In this document: positions 1 to 13,042 of the stretch, one piece after another
How positions within the stretch are numbered: position 1 is the stretch's first letter
Layout: each line of letters opens with the position of its first letter
Assembly: GCA_946612115.1 (NCBI GenBank)
Contig: CAMOEI010000005.1
Span: forward strand, 23,462-87,461
Direction: 5' to 3'
From: an uncultured Bacillales bacterium
Lineage (GTDB): Bacteria > Bacillota_I > Bacilli_A > RFN20 > CAG-826
DNA: 64,000 bases
Translations under genes and position numbers: made by a program
Notes under the pieces: model-generated
Seen by the model: the letters and a program-made list of their open reading frames with translations, nothing else
Database searches by the model: none
Told to the model about the DNA's origin: nothing

Positions 1-1518
1 CAACTGTGATATCGCTCATTTCAGCAGGATTAATCGTAAATGAAACTGTTTTCGTGACAGTTGGATATCCACTTGCTTCAATTTTTACATTGATTGAGTA
101 AGTTCCAGCATCAGTAGGAGCAGGAACTGTACTGCTATATTCAGTTTCACTACCAACTTTATAACCAACAGTGTAGCCGGAAGAAGGTTCAGTGACTGAG
201 ACGGTTAAGGCAACATGTGAGTTTCCATCATAAGTAACTGGGTCAGATGCTGTAACTGTACATTCGATTTTACAGAATTTAATTCTTTTATAATCGCCAT
301 AAGTTGTTGCTGTCGAAGTAGCAGCAATTGTTGCTTGACCGGTTGTTCCTTCATAATTTGTCCAACCATTACCATCATAAGCGTTCTTTAGTTTTCCATT
401 TAACGCTCTGGTCTTGCCATAAGCTAAAAGCAAAGTCACATCGCCTTTTGCATCATAGACAGCTCTGTTTTCGGTGTAATAGCTACTAAGTCCGTAGCTC
501 TTTCCGGAATTAGATGTTCCTCCAACAGCGGTGATTTTACCACTATTGAAAGTACATGTTCCATAGACCATTATTCCAGCCGATTCAAGACCTCCATTAG
601 AGGTACCACCAGTAGCGTTAACTACTGAATTATTAAATATAATATCTTGTCCATGTATTCCAATAGAGCCTCTTGGATTTTCGTCGCTACTACTTGCTGT
701 TGTTGTTCCACCAGTAGAAGTAATCGTGCTATTTGTAAATGTTGCTCTACTGGATGAAGAATTATAGACCTGCATACCGCAAGAATAATGGTCCGCAGTT
801 CCTCCAGTAGCAATAATCGTTGAGTTGGTGACTGTTGTATTATAAAAAACTTCCAGTCCATTTGATTCGGAATTTACTGTTTTTACCACTTCGCCACCAG
901 CAAATGTAACTTTACTATCGATAATTGAAAGAGATCCAAAAACATATAAACCAGTGCTTTTATATGCTGCCTGAGATGCAGAAAATGACACTTCGCAGCC
1001 ATTGACTGTTACGTCTCCGTTGGCGTAGCATCCATAGGCTCCACCATGATTAGTAATAGGTGAAGCTGATGTGAATGAAAGTTTAGTGTTTTCTGGAGCA
1101 TTTTCGGCTTTTGTAAATTCTACAGGATTATTAAATACCGCTCCGGCAACATCTCGATAATTATCCGAACTAAACAAATATCCCCTAATAGAGTTTACTC
1201 CTTTAAGTTTAACAACGAGTTTTTCAAAGCCTTCGGAATATAAGCTCGTATCATAATTTCCTGCATAAACTTGAGCTTGATGACCAGAATTACTATTGTA
1301 GACGAAATTATCCAAAGTTAATGTCTTGCTACTACTATCGTATGTCGCCGTACCACTAGAGCCTGTACAAACAGGATTAGTGAGCATGTTTTGCTCGCCG
1401 ATAAATAAAGCTTCCGCTGCGTATGCAGGTTTAACATCGCCTTGATGTGCACTCGCTAACGCTCCACCAACGGGTAACGATAACGCACCAGCAATTAATA
1501 ATATATTAATTTTTTTCA
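1..1518 (-). CDS. Secreted cell-surface repeat protein, N-terminal part (gene runs off window at pos 1). Signal peptide MKKINILLIAGALSLPVGGALA; repeated Gly/Thr/Ser-rich NSxITxTGGT segments; then MBG/YDG-type domains (…VTYDGNSHVALTVSV…, …GTYSINVKIEASGYPTVTKTVSFTINPA…).
   Basis: Continuous minus-strand reading frame from ATG at 1518-1516 (preceded by GGAGAAAATAT) to window edge. Missing from ORF track because it has no in-window stop. Motifs read directly from the translation. Confidence 0.6.
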
Positions 1519-1785
1519 TATATTTTCTCCTATACATAATATATGCATATATATCATATACTCGCGAGTGTCACAAAAGTGCCACACTTTTTATATATAA
1601 AATAGTGTCATCCACTCTTAGTCGATCTCAAGTTCGCCAAAAATAAAATATCCTCTAGATAACTCTATGGGATATTTGGGGTGGTTTACCTTATTTGATA
1701 CAATTTTCCCCTATTTGAGTTTTTGTCCCATATCGAAGAACACATTTATTATTTTTCACCAATTTTAATAGAATTAATCAGTTTT

Positions 1786-2119
1786 TTTCATCATCAAAGT
1801 CGTCATAATCACCAACCATTCCTTCACGGTGGTAAACAACACCATTTTGTTCGTTTTTTAAACAATCCAATAATTCTTCAAGCCCATATCTTTTGATAAA
1901 AAGCGTAAATCCATAAGGTTTGATCTTTGACAATAATCTTTTTCATCATTTTTTATTACATTAAAAACAATGTGAATAATTATTTTCAATAGAATATTTT
2001 CTATTTTCACACCATGCTTTATCTGGACAGTCGCCGGAATTGCAACCACTGCATTGGTCGTTTTCACTGTATAAGCAGCGTGCTAATCCGCATCTAGCAA
2101 TTCCGACTTCTCTATTCAT
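1786..2119 (-). pseudogene. Probable degraded DUF3795-like Cys-rich (zinc-ribbon) gene. A 53-aa ORF MNREVGIARCGLARCLYSENDQCSGCNSGDCPDKAWCENRKYSIENNYSHCF* (1961..2119) continues in two other frames (1858..2067, then 1786..1857).
   Basis: Hand translation of the minus strand. The CGLxC…CxGC…C…WCE pattern resembles DUF3795 N-termini. The C-terminal part is reachable only through two frame changes at A/T homopolymers; there is no convincing SD before the ATG. Confidence 0.3.
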
Positions 2120-2140
2120 TGCCATTATACTTTAATTTAG

Positions 2141-2755
2141 TTAGTATCTCTCTTCTTCCGATATTGGGTAAAAATACATTGCTTTATCGTTTAATTCTTC
2201 GATATCAACCGGATCATCAAACTCTGAATATTTCTTAATATCAAAATTCCAAGGTTTATATATTCCTCTTTCTTCATCTTCTCCATCGAAGTCTTTATCT
2301 ATCTCACCTTCTAAATAAGCATATAAGGATCTTATATTATCTTCCCAAATGCCCATGCCTTTTGCATCCAGCACAAAACCAGTTGGAATATCTTCATCAT
2401 CTTCAAATTCTTTTGTCACGATGGTTTTATATATTTTGCAATCAAAATCCCAACCATCACCTGTATCATAGACAAAAATGAACTTTTCAGGCAAATCTTT
2501 GATAGTTTTGTCTTTGAATGGCTCATTTCTAGAACTACCAAAACTATCCCATTGTTCCATCCACGATGAAGGAATATACGCTTTCTCTTTTGTGTGATAC
2601 ATAAAGAAATGTTCCATAGTGCCACCAAATACGTCGACCATTAATTCACCTAACTCTCCTAGGCCAATATCTTCTTTTACTAAAAATATGCGATAGAATC
2701 TACCTTTTGTTGCATATTTGAAATCCGCTCTAATTTTTAAATAATTCATCTTCAT
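2141..2755 (-). CDS. pRiA4b ORF-3-like family protein (PF07929-like)
   Basis: N-terminal YLKIRADFKYATKGRFYRIFLVKEDIGLGELGELMVDVFGG and central FIFVYDTGDGWDFDCKIYKTIV match the family's YxLKIxL…IWRRI… / F.YxYDFGDxWxHxI signature. 16 bp after the upstream gene, so same operon. Confidence 0.55.
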   Translation of the reverse strand: MKMNYLKIRADFKYATKGRFYRIFLVKEDIGLGELGELMVDVFGGTMEHFFMYHTKEKAYIPSSWMEQWDSFGSSRNEPFKDKTIKDLPEKFIFVYDTGDGWDFDCKIYKTIVTKEFEDDEDIPTGFVLDAKGMGIWEDNIRSLYAYLEGEIDKDFDGEDEERGIYKPWNFDIKKYSEFDDPVDIEELNDKAMYFYPISEEERY

Positions 2756-2770
2756 AATAATATTTGATTC

Positions 2771-4114
2771 TTATTTGATAACTTTCCAGTACCCTTTTTT
2801 GTTTGTTCCAACTCTTTGGATATACCCTTTTTCAACCAAAGACTCAAACACTCTCGATACCGTTCTTCTCGATATTTTAAGTTCCACTACTAAAGTGTCG
2901 TATGGAATACTTGGGTTATTTATAAGCTCTAACAACACCCTCTTTTCATTCTCGGTTAAGTCGTTGTTAAAAAGATTTTTGCCATCATTTTTGCCATCAT
3001 TTTTGCCACCTGTAATTTGACTGGCTACATCTTTGCTAAAAGGAATTATAACATTGATATATGTATCATGAATGTCAAAAGCCTCTTTTCCATATTTACC
3101 AATAATCTTAGGAATACCATGACCTGTATGTTCGACAATTCCAAGTTTTAAAAAGATTCTCATCAATACTGAATTTCTAGGGTGGCTAACACCATTAAAG
3201 AAATCATTCATCGTTATCTCTTTTGGAATACCACCATGAGAAGTAATTTCTAATCTATCTTTGTAAAAAGATACTAATGGCTCAGAAATAGTCCAATCGT
3301 TATGAACATATGCATTTACCAAAGCTTCATTAACACAGTCAATATCATATAAATATTTATCTACTCTTGGTCTCACTGTGGTATCGGTAACACATATGTT
3401 TTCAGCAATCAATCTATCTTTCAATCTTTGAAGACCTAATAAAATACTTTGATCACCATAATCACTTCTTTGAGAAATTGATGTTTTATCAGTTCCATCA
3501 AACTTAACGAAGATAACCGGCACCATATTTTTGTCAGATAATAATTCCGCCATCAAATTGTAAGAGCCATCTTTTCTTAATAAGTTAAAACTTTGTTCAA
3601 AGGATAACTCGTTAATATGGTATCCTCTGCTTGTTAAAAGAATCTTCATCATGTCAAAGGACAAAGGAGAATAATGGGCAGGTGCTTCTAAAATGAAATC
3701 ATTATCAATAAAATTTTTAGAATAACGATATTCAATTTCTTCTGAGCTCATTTCTTTACAAGTCGTGCCTACCCTAATAAGGCACCCTTTAGATGAATAA
3801 CCATATTTCTTAATACAGTAAATAGGTTTATATCCTTTAGGTACTGATATTTTTATTATTCTTTTGCCATCTTCACTTAATAAAGCGGTCGATATTTCGT
3901 TTTGTGGATTAGGTTCGATTTGCATTGTAATGATATCTGATATCTTTCTTTGAGTTTCATCTAAATCTTTATCTAAAATACCTAAGACATTACCCCAGTC
4001 AGTTACTCCAACAAAGATATCTCCACCATTCGCATTTAGGAAGGCAACAATATCTCTAACAATTGCATCAACATATTTTTCTTTTAATTCAACAATTTCT
4101 GATTCACGATACAT
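2771..4114 (-). CDS. Schlafen/AlbA_2-like divergent AAA domain + HATPase_c_4-like + C-terminal winged-HTH protein. Usually annotated 'putative transcriptional regulator / RecG C-terminal domain-like ATPase'.
   Basis: Translation MYRESEIVELKEKYVD…IVAFLNANGGDIFVGV (AlbA_2 start) … C-terminal ISRRTVSRVFESLVEKGYIQRVG (HTH). Start chosen at the internal ATG 4114 because GAGGCGAAAAT-ATG gives a good SD. The ORF-track start at 4174 lies in the promoter region. Confidence 0.6.
   Translation of the reverse strand: MYRESEIVELKEKYVDAIVRDIVAFLNANGGDIFVGVTDWGNVLGILDKDLDETQRKISDIITMQIEPNPQNEISTALLSEDGKRIIKISVPKGYKPIYCIKKYGYSSKGCLIRVGTTCKEMSSEEIEYRYSKNFIDNDFILEAPAHYSPLSFDMMKILLTSRGYHINELSFEQSFNLLRKDGSYNLMAELLSDKNMVPVIFVKFDGTDKTSISQRSDYGDQSILLGLQRLKDRLIAENICVTDTTVRPRVDKYLYDIDCVNEALVNAYVHNDWTISEPLVSFYKDRLEITSHGGIPKEITMNDFFNGVSHPRNSVLMRIFLKLGIVEHTGHGIPKIIGKYGKEAFDIHDTYINVIIPFSKDVASQITGGKNDGKNDGKNLFNNDLTENEKRVLLELINNPSIPYDTLVVELKISRRTVSRVFESLVEKGYIQRVGTNKKGYWKVIK
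2975..3010. repeat. 12-bp tandem repeat x3 (ATTTTTGCCATC x2 + ATTTTTGCCACC) inside the CDS, encoding GKNDGKNDGKN
   Basis: Seen directly in the sequence at 2975-3010. Confidence 0.85.
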
Positions 4115-4295
4115 ATTTTCGCCTCGCATCAAAATGATATCATATTTTTGCCATATTCTCAATATTTTTGCCAATATTTCCTTTTTATTTTTGACAAAAA
4201 TCTATCATGTTAAATCAATGAAGAGTCAAATCACAATAAAAAGTAACTAAAATAGAAAAAATCCCTGACATCAAATCAGGGATTAGAAACGATTC

Positions 4296-4372
4296 TGGGG
4301 CGAACGATGAGAATCGAACTCACGAGTGTCTGGTTCACAGCCAGATGTGTTAACCACTTCACCACGTTCGCC
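4296..4372 (-). tRNA. tRNA-His (anticodon GUG) with the extra 5' G(-1)
   Basis: Minus-strand read GGCGAACGTGGTGAAGTGGTTAACACATCTGGCTGTGAACCAGACACTCGTGAGTTCGATTCTCATCGTTCGCCCCA. Cloverleaf with anticodon loop CU-GUG-AA. Followed on the minus strand by hairpin AATCCCTGA/TCAGGGATT + T-run (4258-4285). Confidence 0.85.
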
Positions 4373-4427
4373 AAAACGCAAGATTTATATTAATAGAAAG
4401 GTATTATTTAATCAAGCGTAAGTTTTA

Positions 4428-5798
4428 TTATTCTGCTTTTAAGAAAGCAATATAACCTTTGTATGCTTCATAGACATCGGCTTTAGAGACGATTTCCATT
4501 GGAGCGTGCATATTTAAAACTGGAATTCCAGCGTCGATAACATTCATGTTGTTATTCGCCATAATGTAGGCAATTGTGCCTCCACCACCTTGGTCAACTT
4601 TACCAAGTTCAGCGTTTTGCCAGTGAACACTAGCTTCATCCATGACTTTTCTAATCCAAGCATAGAATTCTGCACTGGAATCATTACATCCAGATTTTCC
4701 TCTACTACCAGTGTACTTGTTAAAAACAAGACCTTGACCAAAATAGCAGGTATTATTAGCGTCAGCAACAGATGGGAATAATGGGTCAAAAGCAGCAGAA
4801 ACATCTGAAGATAAAACATCAGAATTTTCAATAGACACTCTAGCGGCCCATAATGGATCTTTTTCTCCAACTAATTCCGCTAATTTAGCGACAGCGTTTT
4901 CAAAGAACTTGGAGTGAGCGCCAGTCGCACCAACTGAGCCAATTTCTTCTTTATCAACTAAATAACAAACCGCGGTCTTACTAACGTTTTCAGCTTCCAC
5001 AAACGCCATTAAAGATGTATAGGCGCATGAACGATCATCATGTCCATATCCAGCAATCATTGATTGATCTAAACCATAGTCTCTAGCAGGTCCGGCAGGA
5101 ACGACTTCGATTTCAGCAGAGACTAAATCTTCTTCTTCAAAATCGTATTTATCTTTAAGAATCTTCAAGACATTTTTCTTAACAGCTTCTTTTTCTTCTC
5201 CTTCAAGAGGTTTACTGCCTAAAGTTAAATCTAAGGCTTCGCCTTCGATAACTTTTGAGGCAGGTTTTGTAAGTTGATCCGCACTTAAGTGGATAAGTAA
5301 ATCAGAAATACCAACGACTGGATCTTTTGGATCTTCACCGATATTTACTTCAACGGTTGAACCATCTTTTTTACAAACTACTCCGTGTAAAGCAAGAGGG
5401 ACAGTGACCCATTGATATTTTTTAATTCCACCATAATAGTGGGTATCGCCCATGGCAAAACCATTTTTCTCATAAATTGGATGTTCTTTTAAATCCATTC
5501 TTGGGGAATCTAAGTGAGCGCCTAACACTCTTAAACCTTCTTTAACTGGTCTAGAGCCAACTATAAAGGCCACAACACTTTTTCCTCTATTAACAAAATA
5601 GAGTCTATCTCCAACTTTCGCGGAGCTAACTTCTTCTGCTTTCTTAAATCCTTTGGATTCAAGAGTTTTGATAACTTCTTTAACCGCTAATCTCTCAGTC
5701 TTCGCGGTAGAAATAAACTTTTTATATCCTTCTGCGAATTTATAGACTTCTTTTTCTTCTGAAGCACTATAATCTTTCCAAGCATTTTTTCGATACAT
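4428..5798 (-). CDS. M18-family aminopeptidase (aspartyl aminopeptidase-like)
   Basis: 456-aa ORF. Motifs GAHLDSPRMDL, GYGHDDRSCAYTS and a C-terminal GGGGT…HAPMEIVSK pattern typical of M18/M42 aminopeptidases. Confidence 0.7.
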   Translation of the reverse strand: MYRKNAWKDYSASEEKEVYKFAEGYKKFISTAKTERLAVKEVIKTLESKGFKKAEEVSSAKVGDRLYFVNRGKSVVAFIVGSRPVKEGLRVLGAHLDSPRMDLKEHPIYEKNGFAMGDTHYYGGIKKYQWVTVPLALHGVVCKKDGSTVEVNIGEDPKDPVVGISDLLIHLSADQLTKPASKVIEGEALDLTLGSKPLEGEEKEAVKKNVLKILKDKYDFEEEDLVSAEIEVVPAGPARDYGLDQSMIAGYGHDDRSCAYTSLMAFVEAENVSKTAVCYLVDKEEIGSVGATGAHSKFFENAVAKLAELVGEKDPLWAARVSIENSDVLSSDVSAAFDPLFPSVADANNTCYFGQGLVFNKYTGSRGKSGCNDSSAEFYAWIRKVMDEASVHWQNAELGKVDQGGGGTIAYIMANNNMNVIDAGIPVLNMHAPMEIVSKADVYEAYKGYIAFLKAE

Positions 5799-5866
5799 AA
5801 TTCTACCTCCTTCTCAAGTAGTCAAATATCATAGCAAATTTTTCATCAAAAGATAAAACAATATGC

Positions 5867-7078
5867 TTAATCTTTTAATATTTCTGCTAGTCCACCAAGA
5901 CTAGTTTCTTTATATCGAGGGTTCATGTCTAACCCTGTTTTATACATCGTTTTAATCGAATCATCATAGCTGACATGAATATCATCATCAGGGATGACAA
6001 TCGCTAATTTAACAGCGTTAATTGCCTTAATGGCAAATAAAGCGCATCTTTCAATACAAGGGATTTGTACATATCCATCAACCGGATCACAAGTTAGCCC
6101 TAAAGAATGTTCTAGAGCAATCTCTGCAGATTGAACAACATCCACTGGATCTTTTCCAAAGCAGAAGGCAATCATCGCTGCTCCCATTGAGCAGGCTACT
6201 CCAATTTCAGCTTGGCAGCCACATTCCGCTCCACTAACTGAAGCGTTTGTTTTACAAACAATACCAAATAAACCAGCCACCATTAATCCTCTAATGATGT
6301 TTTCATCACTAACGCCTTTCATTCTAAGATATTTAATACATCCAGGAATGACTCCAGCGCTTCCACAAGTAGGAGCGGTAACAATAATTCCTCCAGCAGC
6401 GTTTTCTTCAGCGACTGCAAATGAGTGAATTGCGACATTCATCGCGACATCATTTTCTCCTAAGGCAGTTTCTTCCATCGCATCATACATCGCTTTGGCT
6501 TTTCTTTTGACTTTAAGTTTGCCTGGTAATAGACCAGTCGTGTTAAGTCCTCTTTCTACTGCCTCGTCCATCACCTTTAAGACACTAGCGAAATAATCAT
6601 GGATATCACTATCTTCGTGTTCGACAACATAGTCATAGAAAGAAAGGTTGTTCTTTCCAATATATTTCACGATTTCAGACATATGTTGCTCTTTATAGAT
6701 TTCTTTGGTAACTAAAGAATCAATGTTATCAACAGTGACAATACTCCCTCCACCTATAGAGACGACATTCTCACTATAAGTTCTTCCACCTTCACAGTGC
6801 ACTTTAAACGTCATCGTATTTGGATGTTTCTTTTTGGTGTGGTTATTGAAATTGATTTTATGAGGAATATCATTTAACGCTTTTCCAATAATAAAGTCAG
6901 TCAAGTGACCTTTACCAGTTAACGCTAAAGAACCGAATAAAGTGACATCAACCTCTTTGATGTTTTTATCCTTATATTTTTTTAAAATATATTGCGACGC
7001 AAAATATGGACCAATCGTATGTGATGAACTCGGTCCATGACCTGTAATAAAGATTTCTTTTATTGAACGTAATCCCAT
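5867..7078 (-). CDS. sdaA: L-serine dehydratase, iron-sulfur dependent (single chain)
   Basis: N-terminal GHGPSSSHTIGP motif and Cys-containing C-terminal half (TAPTCGSAG…SGAECGCQAEIG). Start taken at MGLRSIKEIF (ATG 7078), 1 nt after the upstream stop; the longer ORF-track start overlaps the lipoprotein gene. Confidence 0.75.
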   Translation of the reverse strand: MGLRSIKEIFITGHGPSSSHTIGPYFASQYILKKYKDKNIKEVDVTLFGSLALTGKGHLTDFIIGKALNDIPHKINFNNHTKKKHPNTMTFKVHCEGGRTYSENVVSIGGGSIVTVDNIDSLVTKEIYKEQHMSEIVKYIGKNNLSFYDYVVEHEDSDIHDYFASVLKVMDEAVERGLNTTGLLPGKLKVKRKAKAMYDAMEETALGENDVAMNVAIHSFAVAEENAAGGIIVTAPTCGSAGVIPGCIKYLRMKGVSDENIIRGLMVAGLFGIVCKTNASVSGAECGCQAEIGVACSMGAAMIAFCFGKDPVDVVQSAEIALEHSLGLTCDPVDGYVQIPCIERCALFAIKAINAVKLAIVIPDDDIHVSYDDSIKTMYKTGLDMNPRYKETSLGGLAEILKD

Positions 7079-7079
7079 A

Positions 7080-9566
7080 TTAATCCTGATAATAAACAAC
7101 CATCGATGTAATTTTGATATAGTCAGTGTTGCCTGTTGAATAAACCCCAACTTCTTCTTCGATTACTGTTGTTTCATATGTTGAAAACACTAAAGTTGTG
7201 TAATCTTTAAACGAACGATAATAACTATAATTCAAGCTTGTAAAATAACCAAATCCAGAAAAAGATGCAGTATAGAAAGTAACTCCGACGATTGGTTTAG
7301 CATAACTAATAGAGAATTTAGTTTTGTCTTTTAATTTGAGATAATTGACATCTCTTTCAATTGTGCCTTTGCTTGTAGATTCATTTCTAACAGTAATTCC
7401 GTTTTGGCTCCACTGTTGATAAACGCCATCTTCTCTAGTACATGTTGCCACATCTGTATCAAAGGTAATCGTTTCTTTTTTAGCGTTATAAAAACCAGTG
7501 GAATACACTAAATCTTCAAAGACATTAACTCTCCACATATTCTTACCGTCAACATTATCTAAATACGCCAAAGTGAAATAGACTGTAAACTTACATTCTT
7601 TTACTTCCTCTTCAGTTTCACAAAGATTAATTAACAAGGCATCAAAGACTTGTTTGTAGTCTAAGTTTTCGTTGAAGACACCTAAGGCATTATGATTTGC
7701 AGCGTTAACTTGACTGCTACCAGTTGTGTAGCATTTGCTAGAAGCATCATAGTAATAAGAACTGCTAAGCGTATATTTATTTAAAGCGTATTGAGAAACA
7801 TACACTTCTGCTTCATAAACAGTGAGTTCGCTTTTCTTATATGATTCACCTGAATGAGTGGAAATTTGATAAAAACTCGATAAATTTTCCACTTTTGTTG
7901 GTAAATTCATGAAATCATAGATCGTTGGCTCATCAACTGAATTCTCAATTACTTTAAGAATTCTTAATGATGGTCTACCTTTATACATCGACTCAAATCC
8001 GATGATGTCATAGACTTGATCCTTCACTAAATTTGATCTAGCGTTATCATCAAGGGAATATACAGGAACAATCTTGCTATCGCTACCTAAAAATAGATAA
8101 CTACCTGCGGAATTATATTTATTAAAGTAGGTTAGTCCTGTCATCTTGACAATCTTGCTTGTACCATAACCTTTTGAGTTTGTTTTAGTGGACTCTAAAT
8201 CTGCTAATAATTCGCTTTGAGAACTGATGGTTTTTTCCACTAATGCGTCAACATTAACATTAACTTCTAAGGCAGAATTATATTTATAAGAATCGACTTT
8301 GATTTCAACAACATCATTTAAGAAAGCAATCTTACCTTCGACTTCGTAGCAAGATCCACTATTCATATATTTCTTCGCTGCAGCGTATAAGCTAACTGGA
8401 TTATTAGATGAAGTGCTGCTAGAAACTAGGATTGCTCCTGTTTCATCTGCGCATAAAACTTTTCCTCTAGCGTTAGCGTCATAGCCTGCTGTTGTATCTG
8501 CTGAATCAATACAATCGATAGCTTTAACTTGTAATTTAACAGTAGTGTCAGTCAAATACCATCCCACATTGTTAGGAGTGTATGAATATCCTTGAATTGA
8601 TTCGTAAACTTGTGCGACAGTGCTCACTCCATCGGTTGAAGGAATAATCTTTTCGCACTTGACACCTTTAACATCGATGTCTGTAAATCTAATCTGATCA
8701 TTAGCAATGAATTTCACTGTCTTAGCTTCGCCTGTCCATACATATTCGGTTTCGTCAGAGTTATAACCGACTGACCCGCTGTCTGCAGAAACAGTGCCTT
8801 TATTAGAACCCGATAGAAGAATAAATGAGAGTCTCTTCAGTGTGATGCTTTCACTGGACACTGTAAGTGAAGTATTTGCGTAGAAACGAACATGCCAACC
8901 ATTTTTGTTATAAACTGATGGACCAATATTTGCGCTTTCCTTTTTGAAAGTATATTTAATTTGATCACTTGTGACAGTGATATTATCCATATTTTGTCCG
9001 CTGTAATCTTTCATATTATCGGCAACCGAGAATGTATATTCCACTGCAGTGTATTTATAGCCATCATCTTCAATATCAATATCACCCATATAGAAGGCAT
9101 ATTCATCATATGTTTCATATTTGATAACTGTGTTATTTCCAATTGATTTATAAGCGACGGTAAAAACCACTTTGTTGCTCGCATCTTTATAAACGGAAGT
9201 ATCCGAACCATAAAGCGAATAATTTAGTTTTGTTGCAGCTTGTTTATATAAAGAAGAAATATCTCCTTGAATTACCAATTCAAAATAAGAATACTCAAAC
9301 TCTTTGATTGAATAATCAAGAATCAATGATGAATTAACTTTATATTCTGGAATTACGACTCCTGTGACACCTTTATCTTCATAGAAAGCTAGGATTTCAT
9401 CAGTTGGGAACACCTTAGTGTCCACTGGATCATCTCCACCCGGAGTGTCTCCTCCTTCTCCAGGATCAGTTTCTCCTGGATTACTAGGAGCACTACTTTC
9501 TTTTGGAGTGAATGCACATCCCGCTAATAGGAAAATAGAAAATAAAATTGGTAATAACTTTTTCAT
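7080..9566 (-). CDS. Large acidic surface lipoprotein (lipobox LLAGC). Flexible PGETDPGEGGDTPGGDDP linker after the Cys. Function unknown.
   Basis: 828-aa ORF. Signal peptide + LAGC lipobox. Its stop overlaps the sdaA start and its start overlaps the cysE stop (ATGA). Confidence 0.6.
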   Translation of the reverse strand: MKKLLPILFSIFLLAGCAFTPKESSAPSNPGETDPGEGGDTPGGDDPVDTKVFPTDEILAFYEDKGVTGVVIPEYKVNSSLILDYSIKEFEYSYFELVIQGDISSLYKQAATKLNYSLYGSDTSVYKDASNKVVFTVAYKSIGNNTVIKYETYDEYAFYMGDIDIEDDGYKYTAVEYTFSVADNMKDYSGQNMDNITVTSDQIKYTFKKESANIGPSVYNKNGWHVRFYANTSLTVSSESITLKRLSFILLSGSNKGTVSADSGSVGYNSDETEYVWTGEAKTVKFIANDQIRFTDIDVKGVKCEKIIPSTDGVSTVAQVYESIQGYSYTPNNVGWYLTDTTVKLQVKAIDCIDSADTTAGYDANARGKVLCADETGAILVSSSTSSNNPVSLYAAAKKYMNSGSCYEVEGKIAFLNDVVEIKVDSYKYNSALEVNVNVDALVEKTISSQSELLADLESTKTNSKGYGTSKIVKMTGLTYFNKYNSAGSYLFLGSDSKIVPVYSLDDNARSNLVKDQVYDIIGFESMYKGRPSLRILKVIENSVDEPTIYDFMNLPTKVENLSSFYQISTHSGESYKKSELTVYEAEVYVSQYALNKYTLSSSYYYDASSKCYTTGSSQVNAANHNALGVFNENLDYKQVFDALLINLCETEEEVKECKFTVYFTLAYLDNVDGKNMWRVNVFEDLVYSTGFYNAKKETITFDTDVATCTREDGVYQQWSQNGITVRNESTSKGTIERDVNYLKLKDKTKFSISYAKPIVGVTFYTASFSGFGYFTSLNYSYYRSFKDYTTLVFSTYETTVIEEEVGVYSTGNTDYIKITSMVVYYQD

Positions 9567-10321
9567 TTTTGCCTCTTTGAAATAATTGAATCTTTTGTGT
9601 TATAAACAGTCTCACCTTTTAAAACAGAGTTAACAATAAAGACGTTAGAGCCAATAGTCGCTCCTTCTTCAATAATTGTTTCTCCTCCTAAAATAGATGC
9701 ACCTGCGTAGATTGTGACATTATCTTTAATTGTTGGATGTCTTTTCTTGTTAAATAAATCTCTACCCTCTTTCAGAGAAAGAGCGCCGAGAGTGACTCCG
9801 TGATAAATCTTCACATAGTTACCAATTTCACTAGTTTCGCCAATAACGATTCCGGTGCCGTGATCGATAAAGAATGGGCAACCTATTTTACAGGCTGGAT
9901 GAATATCAATACCGGTTTTGCTATGAGCAATCTCAGTAATTAGTCTAGGAACATAAGGAACCCCTAATAAATAAATCTCATGAGCGATTCTATAGAAAGT
10001 AATCGCAAATAAACCAGGATAAGTAATGATGATTTCATCTTTAGATTCACTGGCAGGATCTCCTTCATAAGTAAAATCAACATCCTTAGTTAATTTTTCT
10101 TTTAATTCAGGAAGCTTTTCTAAAAATAATTCACTAGTGGATTTACAGATTGCCTTTTTATATAAAGATTGAATAATCTTTTTCTTTCTTTTTAAATAGG
10201 ATTCTTCATTTCCCTTAAGCTTTTCAAAATAGCCCGGAAATAGATAGTCTCTAACTTCATAAACAAATTTAGCGACATCTTTTCTTTTAGGAAATGTTTC
10301 AAAACAAGTTTCTTTTCTCAT
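9563..10321 (-). CDS. cysE: Serine O-acetyltransferase
   Basis: Hexapeptide-repeat C-terminus (IDIHPACKIGCPFFIDHGTGIVIGETSEIGNYVKIYHGVTLG) and SAT N-terminal helices. Confidence 0.8.
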   Translation of the reverse strand: MRKETCFETFPKRKDVAKFVYEVRDYLFPGYFEKLKGNEESYLKRKKKIIQSLYKKAICKSTSELFLEKLPELKEKLTKDVDFTYEGDPASESKDEIIITYPGLFAITFYRIAHEIYLLGVPYVPRLITEIAHSKTGIDIHPACKIGCPFFIDHGTGIVIGETSEIGNYVKIYHGVTLGALSLKEGRDLFNKKRHPTIKDNVTIYAGASILGGETIIEEGATIGSNVFIVNSVLKGETVYNTKDSIISKRQK

Positions 10322-10420
10322 ATGTGTATTCTCGCACGTACATATACATTATGCGAAGAAATTATATTTTTATCAAATAATAAAACTTAAAAAGTATTAT
10401 AATGAATTCGAGGTATACAT

Positions 10421-11323
10421 ATGTCAAAACAAAACATCATTGTCCAATCTAAAGATGGATATCAATTATCTTGTGCTTTATTTGAAGCCAGTAAACCAAA
10501 AGCCGTCATTCAAGTAGTCCACGGCATGGAAGAACATAAAGAAAGATATGACGCCTTTGCGGAATATCTTGCTAAAAACGGATTCACTGTTTTAACTAGT
10601 GATTTAAGAGGGCACGGAGAAAACGCTCCACTATTAAGTCATATCGCCGATAAAAAGGGTGACGAATTATTAATTAGTGACCAACAAGAAATCTTAAAAT
10701 ATATCAAAAACACCTATAAAGGTGTCCCAGTATATTTATTCGGTCACTCCATGGGAACAATCATTTCTAGAGTCTTACTTCAAAAAGAAGCTAAAGAATA
10801 TGAAAAAGTTGCCCTATCTGGATATGTTAATCCTAATCCAGCCGGAGGAGCGGGTATTGTTCTAGGTAACTTAATCGCTTTATTTAAAGGTAAAAAAGGA
10901 AATTCCAAATTCATTACCAACTTAGTGGTTGGAGGATTTAATAAATCAATTGAAAATCCAAGAACTCCACTTGACTGGTTAAGCTATAACGAAGATAACG
11001 TTAACGCTTATATCGCTGACCCACTTTCAGGAAAAGAATTTACTTTAGGAAGTTATAACGCTTTATTTAAACTCCTCGTTCAAATGGGTAAAGCGAAAAA
11101 ATATCAACCAATTAATGAAAACTTAAAGTTCCTTCTCATCGCAGGTAAAGATGACCCTTGTACCGGATTTGAAAAAGGAAGAGAAGCCAGTAAAAAATTA
11201 CTTGAAAAAGCAGGCTATAAAAATATTTCTGTCATCACTCTTGATAACATGAGACACGAAATCTTAAATGAGACAGAAAAAGAAAAAGTCTACGAAGATC
11301 TCCTTAAATATTTCGAAGAATAA
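10421..11323 (+). CDS. Alpha/beta hydrolase (lysophospholipase / monoacylglycerol lipase-like)
   Basis: GHSMG nucleophile elbow; HG oxyanion motif (VVHGMEEH); ~300 aa; SD GAGGT 8 nt before ATG. Confidence 0.7.
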   Translation: MSKQNIIVQSKDGYQLSCALFEASKPKAVIQVVHGMEEHKERYDAFAEYLAKNGFTVLTSDLRGHGENAPLLSHIADKKGDELLISDQQEILKYIKNTYKGVPVYLFGHSMGTIISRVLLQKEAKEYEKVALSGYVNPNPAGGAGIVLGNLIALFKGKKGNSKFITNLVVGGFNKSIENPRTPLDWLSYNEDNVNAYIADPLSGKEFTLGSYNALFKLLVQMGKAKKYQPINENLKFLLIAGKDDPCTGFEKGREASKKLLEKAGYKNISVITLDNMRHEILNETEKEKVYEDLLKYFEE

Positions 11324-11326
11324 AAG

Positions 11327-11352
11327 AAAGACCCTTTGGGTCTTTTCTTTTT
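11327..11352. terminator. Bidirectional rho-independent terminator AAAGACCC-TTT-GGGTCTTT between convergent genes
   Basis: Perfect 8-bp stem with A-run upstream and T-run downstream. Confidence 0.8.
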
Positions 11353-12480
11353 CTATTCAATAATTCCAATTTCTTTTTTAAATGTTTGTCTTCTTTGACG
11401 GATACTTTTTTCAAAGCCTTTCCAGGTTTGAAGCATCTTACTATTCGTGGTTAAGACAGGATCCATCCAAATATCAGTAATCTTTCCTTTTTTGAAGTTT
11501 TTCACAAAGCGGTCAATGACTAATGCGTGCACCCCATGGTTACGATATTGTGGGTCCACTCCAATTAAAGCGAGTTCAATGGCTTTTGGTCTCATGATAT
11601 TCCAAACAATTGGAATCGCCGCGAATAACATTCTTCCTTTCGCTCTTCTTATGGAGTTACCGATATGAGGTAAGCCAACTCCAAAGGCAACGACTTGATT
11701 TTCTTTATTTACAATAACTGAAAAATATTTGCGATTAATAATCGTGGCGAATTGATCTAAGACTGCTTGTTTCATATCTCCAGTTAATGGAATGAAATTA
11801 TCTAATTGAGAATAGGCTTTATTATAGCAATCAAAGAAACTATCTCCATATTCTTTAACGATTTGTTTAACTGACATCGTTTCTGTTAATTCGCGATATC
11901 CATCTTCTCTAATTTTATTGGCGATACTTTCAAATCGAGGATCGACATGAGAGATATCAAAAGAGAATTCAATCCATTCGGATTCTTTTTCAAATCCTAA
12001 TTCATTCATATATCTAGCGTAATATGGATAAGAGTAGGCAGTCGCGTAATTAGAAAGTTGATCATAACCTTCGGTTAACATCCCTTCTCTATCGGTATCA
12101 TCAAATCCCCATGGACCGTGGATCATTGTGCACCCGTTTTCTAAACCGTATTTCATCACCGCGTTCACTAACGCTTTAGCGACCTCATAATCTTCAATGA
12201 AATCAATTCGAGATAATCTGATATTCTTAACTTTGTTAAGTTCGTTAGACTTATGATTGATAATTCCACAGACTCTACCAACGAGTTTGCCGTCCTTATA
12301 GGCTAAGAATGCTTTACAATCGCTAGTCCCTTTAGATAAGTTCTTTTTTGAATCTAAAATAGTAGCCTCATCACTAACGAAAGATGGAACATAATATTTA
12401 CATTTTCGATATAGTTTAATTGGAAAAGTAGCAAATGCAAGCATTTGCTTTTTAGTAGTAGCTTCAATTATTTCAATCAT
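11353..12480 (-). CDS. GNAT-fold acetyltransferase-like protein (375 aa); specific function unknown
   Basis: Central/C-terminal GVDPQYRNHGVHALVIDRF resembles the GNAT acetyl-CoA binding region. Otherwise no recognisable signature. Confidence 0.4.
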   Translation of the reverse strand: MIEIIEATTKKQMLAFATFPIKLYRKCKYYVPSFVSDEATILDSKKNLSKGTSDCKAFLAYKDGKLVGRVCGIINHKSNELNKVKNIRLSRIDFIEDYEVAKALVNAVMKYGLENGCTMIHGPWGFDDTDREGMLTEGYDQLSNYATAYSYPYYARYMNELGFEKESEWIEFSFDISHVDPRFESIANKIREDGYRELTETMSVKQIVKEYGDSFFDCYNKAYSQLDNFIPLTGDMKQAVLDQFATIINRKYFSVIVNKENQVVAFGVGLPHIGNSIRRAKGRMLFAAIPIVWNIMRPKAIELALIGVDPQYRNHGVHALVIDRFVKNFKKGKITDIWMDPVLTTNSKMLQTWKGFEKSIRQRRQTFKKEIGIIE

Positions 12481-12592
12481 TATTTTTACCTAACGCTATA
12501 CATAATTATACATAAAGTATAAAAATTAAATAGTGTTTTTTATTTAATAAACAAAATTGAAAATTATCTAATAAATCTATATAGTAAGTAAA

Positions 12593-13042
12593 GTGATTAT
12601 GGAAAACGAAAAGAAATCTAACAAGATATTAAAGTTATTACTAGAAGCATTTTATATTCTTTCTCCTGCCGCTATTGAGGTGGGTGTATTTGAATTATTA
12701 TTAATTTGGATTAAAGAACCATCCAAATGGTTTATTGCCTATCTACTCTGTATGACCGTAAGTGTCTTATACACTTTGCTCGTCATTAGAAAACATACCT
12801 ATGAAGATAAGACCAATAAATTAACTATTGGGATTGCCTTAGCAATCTATTACGCTTTATTTATTGGAATTGCCACTCCAATATGCCAATTAGTATTTAT
12901 CAATAAATACGGTATGAGTGGAAGAGTTCTTGAACTCATCTTATTAGCGATTAATTTAGTCATTGAAAATTTATATCACCACATCATCTTAGCTAAACTA
13001 GGTAAAGATAATAATGAAAGAAAAGAAGCCTCCGTTAACTAA
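12593..13042 (+). CDS. Small polytopic membrane protein (possibly GtrA-like)
   Basis: Hydrophobic 149-aa ORF; overlaps the next gene by 29 nt. Confidence 0.35.
   Translation: MIMENEKKSNKILKLLLEAFYILSPAAIEVGVFELLLIWIKEPSKWFIAYLLCMTVSVLYTLLVIRKHTYEDKTNKLTIGIALAIYYALFIGIATPICQLVFINKYGMSGRVLELILLAINLVIENLYHHIILAKLGKDNNERKEASVN

Follow-up and report, generated by a model that had tools for sequence, protein, structure and literature searches.

Bacterial Schlafens have been shown to act as phage-defence tRNases (PMC13056530; bioRxiv 10.64898/2026.05.29.728809); their role as immune effectors that cut tRNA came to light only in 2025-2026. The defence-active examples are fusions to Ig-like and DUF262 domains (Perez Taboada et al., Nat Microbiol 2026, PMC13056530), and the commonest Schlafen architectures, in which a GHKL ATPase domain is present with or without a helix-turn-helix (HTH) domain, are still without a phenotype, a trigger or a regulatory logic. 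According to the survey of Perez Taboada et al., the HisKinase-HTH class makes up 19.2% of 5,930 prokaryotic Schlafens (PMC13056530). The combination of AlbA_2 and PF13749 has been named the 'Schlatpase' supradomain and occurs in 60,692 prokaryotic proteins, most of which are small, with or without a C-terminal HTH (bioRxiv 10.64898/2026.05.29.728809). In this study, we describe one such gene and the small mobile cassette that appears to carry it behind a tRNA-His gene, at about 1.5-4.4 kb on the minus strand of a 64-kb stretch of DNA from an uncultured Bacillales bacterium (GenBank assembly GCA_946612115.1, contig CAMOEI010000005.1, positions 23,462 to 87,461). This whole stretch is referred to as the window, and all coordinates are window-based.

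On the evidence of its sequence, the first gene of the locus is a prokaryotic Schlafen of the 'Schlatpase-HTH' type, alias the pSlfn HisKinase-HTH class. A preliminary description of this DNA had called the combination of AlbA_2, HATPase_c_4 and HTH poorly characterised, which is out of date, since this is the second commonest prokaryotic Schlafen architecture. The protein and its class share an N-terminal nuclease with the motif Ex4(E/D)xK, a GHKL/HisKinase-like domain and a C-terminal HTH, and both are sporadic, horizontally moved and found in defence-type neighbourhoods (PMC13056530). The same paper does not describe a PF07929 neighbour, a tRNA-CCA cassette context or the reiteration of promoter boxes in a linker. 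In SLFN-pAgo (RzAgo), the protein forms tetramers when its GHKL domain binds ATP, and this creates the nuclease, a mode of activation known for RzAgo only (Kuzmenko et al., bioRxiv 10.64898/2026.05.29.728809). The Schlatpase of SLFN-pAgo and the window protein have in common PF04326 plus PF13749, the nuclease motif and a SAFAN-like box; however, SLFN-pAgo has an Argonaute sensor, whereas the cassette has none, and the PADLOC match of the window protein to pAgo is limited to the GHKL segment. TrlG of Photorhabdus has the same two domains and causes growth arrest at 37 C (Hapeshi et al., bioRxiv 10.1101/2020.06.02.129163). The Temperature Restricting Locus of TrlG resembles the window locus in having an AlbA_2 plus HATPase_c_4 protein within a small accessory operon of sporadic distribution, but TrlG is accompanied by a PHP-type phosphatase and by a small HTH protein encoded separately, and neither PF07929 nor a tRNA-linked cassette is present there.

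With a probability of roughly 0.55, we consider positions 1677-4295 of the window to be a recombinase-less mobile cassette that was inserted after the CCA of tRNA-His and that carries a self-repressed, defence-like Schlafen gene. Judging from the loci compared below, cassettes built in the same way are found behind a wide range of tRNA genes in uncultured bacteria of the gut and rumen. The features of the locus, all on the minus strand, are as follows.

4296..4371, minus strand: tRNA-His(gtg), found by ARAGORN; the cassette is inserted at its CCA end
1677..4295, minus strand: whole mobile cassette, 2,619 bp, of low GC, delimited by junction comparison, terminal element and GC dip
4260..4284, minus strand: 5' hairpin with T-run, intrinsic-terminator-like, 11 nt past the CCA (terminator scan)
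4134..4162, minus strand: sigma-70-type promoter TTGAGA-17-(TG)TATCAT of the Schlafen gene, the best score in 1400-4500, with 10 of 12 matches
4144..4173, minus strand: two TGGCAAAAAT boxes (4164-4173 and 4144-4153), putative operator of the winged HTH (wHTH) domain (motif count)
2771..4114, minus strand: Schlafen nuclease-GHKL ATPase-wHTH gene, 447 amino acids (aa) (Pfam, Ex4ExK motif, Foldseek)
2975..3008, minus strand: three in-frame TGGCAAAAAT boxes at 12-bp spacing, which encode the linker GKNDGKNDGKN (motif search)
2141..2755, minus strand: gene of a PF07929/MM3350-fold protein, 204 aa, in the second slot (Pfam)
1778..2125, minus strand: DUF3795-like Cys-rich pseudogene (intact form 124 aa), from homology of a merged translation
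1677..1764, minus strand: terminal element, partly degenerate, GGGACA boxes followed by ATTGTATCAAATAAGGTAAACCACCCCA; the cassette stops at its final CCA (regular expression, nhmmer)
1646..1677, minus strand: probable host hairpin with T-run directly past the cassette (inverted repeat I25 and reading of the sequence)

The preliminary description had proposed three minus-strand genes directly 3' of tRNA-His, and both this arrangement and the domains it named by Pfam family are borne out. The module that it delimited at 1786-4290 is real as well, but its limits extend slightly further, to 1677-4295. The spacers between the genes are 15 bp long, and the GC content is 0.28-0.35 across 1500-4250, compared with 0.37-0.42 in the flanks.

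The evidence for mobility comes from comparison loci (L-numbers), all of which are metagenome contigs or metagenome-assembled genomes. Window positions 1789-4288 are found at 93% identity in L092, behind tRNA-Leu(caa) and between unrelated flanks. Positions 1789-3008 are held by L021, a locus headed by tRNA-Arg(tct) with unrelated flanks, positions 2049-3010 and 4144-4288 by L020, behind tRNA-Thr(cgt) and again with unrelated flanks, and positions 2060-2774 by L019, which is headed by tRNA-Gly(ccc). The copies behind tRNA-Leu, tRNA-Thr and tRNA-Arg are 93-98% identical at the nucleotide level, and it is the module alone, not the window flanks, that the closest relatives have in common. The genome of L020 has a GC content of ~60%, and the cassette within it, which has ~32%, lies between tRNA-Thr(cgt) and tRNA-Val(gac); these two tRNA genes are 10 bp apart in L027. 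The presence of the same DNA behind other tRNAs, among unrelated flanks, upholds the earlier proposal that the module is accessory, tRNA-linked and able to move horizontally. Schlafen genes of the same clade (at least 77% identity) are located 174-366 bp past a same-strand tRNA in eight cases that involve seven tRNA species (His, Ser-gct, Ile-gat, Leu-gag, Ala-ggc, Ala-cgc and Leu-caa). Because the 400-bp stretches downstream of tRNA clusters cover only ~2.5% of the window, by our own estimate from the tRNA calls, this linkage is not a matter of chance; more distant Schlafen relatives have no tRNA linkage. One identical cassette (protein P0127) occurs behind tRNA-Thr(ggt), behind tRNA-Arg(tct) and behind the terminal element of another cassette, with five different right flanks. 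In L010, L011 and L085, cassettes are stacked head-to-tail through their CCA ends, and the anchors as a whole are the exact CCA ends of at least 10 tRNA species. The other tRNA loci of the 64-kb window contain no cassettes.

No recombinase was found within the cassette. Inspection by eye of the ORFs past 11 related loci, with Pfam scans of ~20 neighbouring proteins, revealed only genes of cargo type: PDDEXK_4, DUF3800, DUF3990, RhuM, XRE-HTH and AAA_14-DUF4143. A classic integrase island is not what we find, as no integrase was seen in the cassette or in the 4-8 kb flanks fetched and no tRNA repeat of at least 15 bp occurs at the far end; the left flank available for the window ends at position 1. 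No tRNA-derived direct repeat longer than ~5 nt was found at the far end (CCCCA matches the end of tRNA-His). The comparison with related strains that had been recommended was informative in part: a match, L084, was obtained, but it breaks in the Schlafen gene, and no empty-site allele was obtained. L084, a contig from a sheep-rumen metagenome that was the sole match in a look-up with the aminopeptidase, is 100% identical to window 4038-12798 and breaks 76 bp into the Schlafen gene, as would be expected if the cassette were repeated or strain-variable in that sample.

A tyrosine-integrase element is also found at a tRNA gene in this set of loci. A separate element with a tyrosine integrase and PcfJ/PcfK lies behind tRNA-Thr(tgt) at L007:13074-16540, ~4 kb past the Schlafen cassette of that locus, which indicates that tRNA sites of these genomes are also used by classical integrase elements. 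At L078:3801-4640, a 222-aa hexapeptide-repeat (acetyltransferase-like) gene lies between tRNA-Pro(cgg) and tRNA-Arg(cct), starting 13 nt past the first tRNA and stopping 2 nt before the next; the two tRNA genes are 7 bp apart in L027. Having neither hairpin nor terminal element, this is, as read from the sequence, a different kind of tRNA-cluster insertion.

The two ends of the cassette are defined to the base. Cassette DNA starts directly after the CCA of tRNA-His, and cassettes open with a common layout, namely the CCA, a spacer of 10-12 nt, a hairpin with TGATACAA in its 5' arm and loop, and a T-run. In the window the hairpin has diverged, and TGATTTGATG replaces TGATACAA. Among the fetched loci there are 35 TGATACA-hairpin hits; 28 of them show this opening layout behind either a tRNA or a terminal element, and the other 7 stand behind neither. 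At the opposite end, loci share a terminal element of ~90 nt, in which as many as three GGGACA(A/T) boxes precede ATTGTATYAAAKAAGNTAAAYYATTCCA and the core of which can be written as GGGACA boxes ... ATTGTATCAAA ... CCA; the window copy finishes in CCACCCCA. The element follows PF07929, AAA_14 and DUF3795 genes alike, and after its CCA the next cassette or the host flank begins immediately. For example, gattatttac plus AATCCTTGATACAAAACCAAGGATT stands behind the CCA of tRNA-Thr(ggt) in L009 and of tRNA-Arg(tct) in L014, and it stands equally behind the CCA of the element of an AAA_14 cassette in L010 and L011. Past the window cassette, the hairpin at 1646-1677 is probably the original tRNA-His terminator, and an empty tRNA-His site would then read CCA joined straight to aatatcccatagag. 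The ATTGTATCAAA of the element and the TTGATACAAT of the following hairpin, read directly, are inverted repeats that bracket the junction.

The terminal element has the look of a DNA site to which a protein binds. That it might be a structured RNA or belong to a known RNA family was also considered and is supported neither by Rfam nor by covariation: an Rfam search of five related loci, the window copy not among them, matched tRNAs alone, and RNAalifold gave -2.4 kcal/mol and no compensatory pairs for seven copies, including that of the window. A search of IMG/VR yielded no exact match to the element. Inspected by eye, the 28-nt end did not bear out a dif/Xer-like reading, the spacing of its arms being unsuitable. 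An origin of the tRNA-CCA junction by reverse transcription or template switching was rejected because the cassette's own terminator and promoter lie downstream of its left end.

The Schlafen protein has a full-length match to PF04326 (SLFN_AlbA_2; 6.6e-19, aa 4-123, profile positions 1-118), a match to PF13749 (HATPase_c_4; 9.5e-16, aa 279-343) within a GHKL region around aa 250-345, and wHTH matches (TrmB, HTH_24, MarR_2) at its C-terminal end, aa 385-442, all from Pfam on the 447-aa protein. The length of 467 aa given in the preliminary description must be corrected to 447 aa. The start codon is ATG 4114 and not TTG 4174, because the TTG lies upstream of the -35 of the best promoter, a GAGG ribosome-binding site precedes ATG 4114, and the homologues are 442-448 aa long. 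The catalytic Ex4ExK is intact (E4-S-E-I-V-E9-L-K11), and the Schlafen (SAFAN-like) box is present as A24-F-L-N-A-N-G-G31. Among 44 homologues at 60-80% identity, E9, K11, F25, L26, N27, G30 and G31 are invariant, E4 is conserved in at least 90%, and E263, N267, H271, D273, G294/G295 and G331-H332-G333 are invariant or nearly so. We read the residues from E263 to G333 as the GHKL ATP site, and we take E263 and N267 to be its N-box, as in Bergerat folds generally. An AlphaFold2 model of moderate quality (pLDDT 69), used for domain-level matches alone, gave a whole-protein Foldseek match to 3LMM (E = 7e-16). Compared with L092, the Schlafen protein is 96.6% and the PF07929 protein 97.5% identical, whereas the DNA is 93.3% identical; both main open reading frames (ORFs), which are intact, are under purifying selection.

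Database names for relatives of this protein vary. An exact-protein look-up of the window Schlafen gave no match. Its homologues are named 'winged helix-turn-helix transcriptional regulator' or 'putative DNA binding domain-containing protein' at the source. The PHROGs family phrog_12156, which matches the whole Schlafen-GHKL-HTH protein at 1e-58, is labelled 'DNA helicase', and the JGI label for the homologues is 'ATP-dependent DNA helicase RecG'. These helicase labels look like inherited mis-annotations, since a helicase domain is absent from the protein.

The evidence for autoregulation lies in the TGGCAAAAAT boxes. This 10-mer occurs five times in the 64 kb, always at the Schlafen gene and nowhere away from it (expected 0.55; 0 of 100 shuffles reach five). 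Of the two promoter boxes, 4164-4173 abuts the -35 and 4144-4153 is inside the promoter spacer. The other three, 1.15 kb away, encode the (GKND)3 linker between the GHKL ATPase and the MarR-like wHTH. Of 78 distinct homologous genes, 46 have 8-mers that are repeated within the upstream 170 nt and that recur at least twice between 79 and 87% of the gene length; such 8-mers are 17.5 times as dense there as elsewhere in the gene. The motif itself differs between clades, and promoter and linker change together: TGGCAAAAAT with the linker GKND, AATGTCGGT with NVG(I/L), TGGCACCGA with GTD, and also TGGCAATAT; one clade, with a motif of the form TGGCG(T/C)AATAA, has TGGCGTAATAA at the promoter and TGGCGCAATAAG in the linker. 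On the strength of this pattern, we infer that the linker boxes are an intragenic auxiliary operator and/or a recombination substrate. Promoters of other cassettes also have two or three direct-repeat boxes (TACGGAAT, TTGGAAAAACC and TGGACAA, at L010:290-350, L008:230-290 and L027:3415-3460), which belong to AAA_14-DUF4143 genes and to a distant Schlafen-HTH gene; the AAA_14 genes contain no intragenic copies of their promoter boxes.

In L093 a stretch of 42 nt is identical at promoter and linker. Deletions between boxes have also been observed. In L020 and L021 the promoter box is joined to the linker box, so that the Schlafen-GHKL body is gone and the boxes, the wHTH tail and PF07929 remain; the PF07929 gene of L020 later gained a stop codon. 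In L078 the boxes and wHTH tail stand directly before a DUF3795 gene. In L022, L024 and L026 the wHTH tail alone stands ahead of PF07929; where examined, their junctions are unlike those of L020 and L021. Such repeated loss of the nuclease body is in keeping with an effector that is costly or toxic.

The second gene encodes a member of the MM3350 fold, with a Pfam match of ORF 2141-2755 to PF07929 (PRiA4_ORF3) at 2.6e-9 and 37.5 bits against a cut-off of 26.6. Genes of this pRiA4b ORF-3-like type have been noted as passengers of ISAzba1-type transposons (PMC3942029). The window subfamily differs from MM3350 (PDB 2I1S) and from the ISAzba1 passengers by its strongly conserved motifs YDTGDGWDF, GxGIWEDN and PWN and by its place downstream of Schlafen-HTH or AAA_14-DUF4143 genes. 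A sequence search of the PDB with the subfamily profile gave no match, and neither did PF07929 in phage and plasmid collections at E <= 1e-3. In the PF07929-centred set of 62 loci (59 genome loci and three obtained by look-up), a Schlafen-HTH gene or its remnant is within two genes of PF07929 in ~11 loci and an AAA_14-DUF4143 ATPase in 12; the remaining neighbours are unrelated, and in some loci PF07929 stands alone. In the Schlafen-centred set of 80 metagenome loci (52-97% protein identity), PF07929 is downstream of Schlafen in two, L092 and, partially, L085. It is missing from the 95%-identical L086 and from the 77-81%-identical L087-L091, L001 and L007, and the slot after the Schlafen gene is filled elsewhere by DUF3795 (L078), a lipoprotein (L001) or DUF2188 and another gene (L007). 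The 208-aa genes after Schlafen in L001 and L007 were considered as diverged PF07929, and alignment shows them to be unrelated. Where Schlafen and PF07929 do adjoin, the junctions are tight (15-bp spacing or 4-, 11- or 17-bp overlaps). PF07929 is 79-83% identical where the Schlafen partners share 28-50% with that of the window, and a 100%-identical PF07929 in L019 is behind an AAA_14-DUF4143 gene.

These comparisons correct the idea that PF07929 is a dedicated Schlafen partner. The two genes do not appear to form an obligate system, since PF07929 accompanies Schlafen in only 2 of 80 loci, the two do not co-evolve and the association with AAA_14-DUF4143 is equally frequent. In our reading of these alignments, the adjacency is real and non-random, yet facultative, and PF07929 is a modular second-slot gene. 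Other PF07929 genes in the compared loci are varied in build. Two paralogues in tandem, which share 39% and 47% identity with the protein of the window, precede a Schlafen-like gene at L036:5327-6933; proteins of 569 aa with an N-terminal PF07929 and a long C-terminal extension are encoded at L068:6001-7710 and L072:6007-7716; and many relatives (290-310 aa) have a helical C-terminal extension, which the window protein is without. Neighbours of PF07929 cassettes include RhuM-family genes (L025:6949-7980; L026:965-1447), DUF3800 (L023), DUF3990 (L019) and a PDDEXK_4 nuclease (L021), which are cargo typical of defence and mobile islands.

The third gene had been described as a decayed DUF3795-type gene, and we agree. 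Separate fragments of 1778-2125 have no Pfam match, but the three-frame merged translation is 55-67% identical, over 96% of the length, to 1,553 intact proteins of ~124 aa, called 'DUF3795 domain-containing' by NCBI. In the window copy three of the conserved Cys are missing, the reading frame shifts at least once after ...SHCF and the C-terminus is cut short; by this alignment it is a true pseudogene.

We propose the following working for the cassette, whose order would be hairpin, sigma-70 promoter with boxes, Schlafen gene, PF07929 gene, dead DUF3795-like gene and terminal element. The spacer and terminator hairpin would insulate the cassette from read-through of the tRNA. The C-terminal wHTH would bind the promoter boxes and the linker boxes and keep the nuclease gene tightly self-repressed, possibly by a loop formed by the oligomeric protein or by a roadblock ahead of the coding parts for the HTH and PF07929. 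Upon activation, the Schlafen active site (E4, E9, K11) would assemble, cut tRNA and arrest translation, resulting in abortive infection or growth arrest; this step is suggested by homology with SLFN-pAgo, pSlfn5/7 and TrlG. The PF07929 protein would be a modular accessory co-transcribed with Schlafen, and our guess is that it may be a sensor, an adaptor or an independent effector. Finally, a recombinase supplied in trans may carry the cassette from one tRNA 3' end to another, and likewise among the CCA ends of cassettes already resident.

Several points weigh against this reading of the locus. The HisKinase-fusion Schlafens tested in E. coli gave no protection against the phage panel used (PMC13056530). 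PADLOC-DB v2 contains no system-specific model that matches; the matches are at the level of domains alone (pAgo GHKL segment, 4.8e-7; HTH of SoFic, CasR and Csa3), and the PF07929 protein and the third gene have none. That the boxes are wHTH operators is inferred from motif co-variation, and the sharing of motifs between promoter and linker could be due, alternatively or additionally, to continuing gene conversion, as the 42-nt identity in L093 would suggest. No recombinase was seen in the 4-8 kb flanks fetched, where ORFs were judged partly by eye and ~20 were scanned with Pfam. Mobility and the exact junctions are observed; the recombinase in trans is a proposal. For any single locus, chimeric assembly at tRNA genes is conceivable. 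A defence or abortive-infection module, as first suggested, is plausible through Schlafen homology, although it is not a system that PADLOC recognises, and a role of the window Schlafen protein as a defence or growth-arrest tRNase is likewise plausible.

Other explanations account for parts of the same evidence. An obligate two-gene defence system, with the Schlafen-GHKL-HTH protein and PF07929 as effector and sensor, would explain why PF07929 is repeatedly found next after a Schlafen gene, spaced by 15 bp or overlapping by 4-17 bp (window, L009-L016, L025, L027, L092), why this recurrence spans Schlafen clades only 28-50% identical to each other, and why ~11 of 62 PF07929 loci have a Schlafen-HTH gene or remnant within two genes, against a rough chance estimate of <1%. 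However, just two of the 80 Schlafen-HTH relatives have PF07929, which is found equally behind AAA_14-DUF4143 and also alone; PF07929 is ~80% identical where Schlafens are 28-50% identical, which speaks against co-evolution, and the slot may hold DUF3795, a lipoprotein or DUF2188 instead, so that we regard such a system as unlikely. The same absence of PF07929 from most Schlafen-HTH genes bears on a toxin-antitoxin or addiction pair, in which Schlafen would act as toxin and the cassette would be stabilised by PF07929 or the wHTH tail as antitoxin. A tight, coupled pair behind an autorepressed promoter, the repeated loss of the nuclease body with retention of the wHTH tail and PF07929 (L020, L021, L022, L024, L026), the subsequent stop codon in PF07929 of L020 and the growth arrest by TrlG relatives would all suit this arrangement, but PF07929 is not a required antitoxin, does not co-evolve with Schlafen and accompanies another ATPase family too. 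We consider such a pair very unlikely.

If the 447-aa protein were a transcription regulator alone, with Schlafen and GHKL domains that sense a ligand and no role as a nuclease or in defence, the wHTH, the operator-like boxes, the regulator name given to homologues and the failure of the tested HisKinase-class Schlafens to protect against phages (PMC13056530) would all be accounted for. Against this stand the Ex4ExK and GHKL ATP-site residues, invariant or nearly so across the 44 homologues, the confinement of the boxes to the protein's own gene, with no other target evident in the 64 kb, and the mobile, sporadic character that the gene shares with defence genes; we judge a purely regulatory role to be quite improbable. 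The least probable of these explanations, in our view, is an inert, eroding remnant of a larger prophage or integrative island that has lost its integrase end. A pseudogene, a degenerate terminal element in the window, an adjoining tRNA and related Schlafen proteins in phage families (phrog_12156) are what a remnant might leave. But both main ORFs are intact and under purifying selection, one short unit with identical ends recurs at at least seven tRNA species, no tRNA-derived far-end repeat exceeds ~5 nt, head-to-tail stacking (L010, L011, L085) is unexpected from the decay of large islands, and PF07929 and the terminal element lack matches in phage and plasmid collections and in IMG/VR, respectively. 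We therefore retain the self-repressed Schlafen cassette as the preferred explanation of the locus.

The most interesting results beyond the preliminary description are the tRNA-CCA-anchored cassettes and the operator motif inside the linker of a repressor-nuclease. Uncultured low-GC gut and rumen Bacilli may possess a platform of self-contained cassettes inserted after the CCA of any tRNA or resident cassette. Each cassette may consist of a terminator hairpin, an autoregulated promoter, one to three genes and an end of the form GGGACA-box/ATTGTATCAAA...CCA. Such a platform may build and shuffle arrays of defence-type genes in the manner of integrons, and recombination from box to box may delete, and perhaps restore, a toxic nuclease body. 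Taken jointly, a CCA cassette platform served by a recombinase in trans and an operator motif that doubles as loop or roadblock and as switch for nuclease deletion form a tentative proposal, on balance doubtful. The locus offers a testable design of self-repression, and the co-variation across 78 genes could guide class-wide experiments. Insertion at the exact CCA and the conserved ends point to a site-specific mechanism that assembles defence islands in genome-reduced uncultured gut bacteria; if this mechanism is confirmed, it would be a new route for the capture and exchange of accessory genes and a possible tool for tRNA-anchored integration.

Beside the cassette, the neighbouring gene that had been called an adhesin (window 2-1519, minus strand) runs past the window edge and encodes a signal-peptide protein with no Pfam match in its first 506 aa, and is at most a candidate adhesin. 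A literature search on cassettes downstream of tRNAs found no description of such an arrangement, although its coverage was incomplete and absence is unproven.

The regulatory part of the locus resembles the intragenic auxiliary operators known from two classical systems, lac O2 in lacZ and gal OI in galE. There, as proposed here, repressor sites at the promoter and inside the coding region allow looping. The differences are that the sites of the Schlafen gene are in-frame in the repressor's own linker, before the DNA-binding domain, that they co-vary with the promoter sites across clades, and that they double as deletion end-points.

The cassette itself belongs beside integron gene cassettes, Acinetobacter pdif modules and tycheposon arrays, which are short recombinase-less cassettes with conserved end sites that are stacked at a fixed anchor and shuffled between genomes; tycheposons use tRNA genes too. 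Arrays and conserved end elements in our loci resemble integron cassettes, and no IntI was seen; attC and dif were not searched formally. In contrast to all three, the anchor here is the exact tRNA CCA, and the cassettes are bounded by a TGATACAA hairpin at the 5' end and by a GGGACA-box/ATTGTATCAAA...CCA element at the 3' end. Unlike integron cassettes, for which this is atypical, each cassette described here has its own promoter and terminator.

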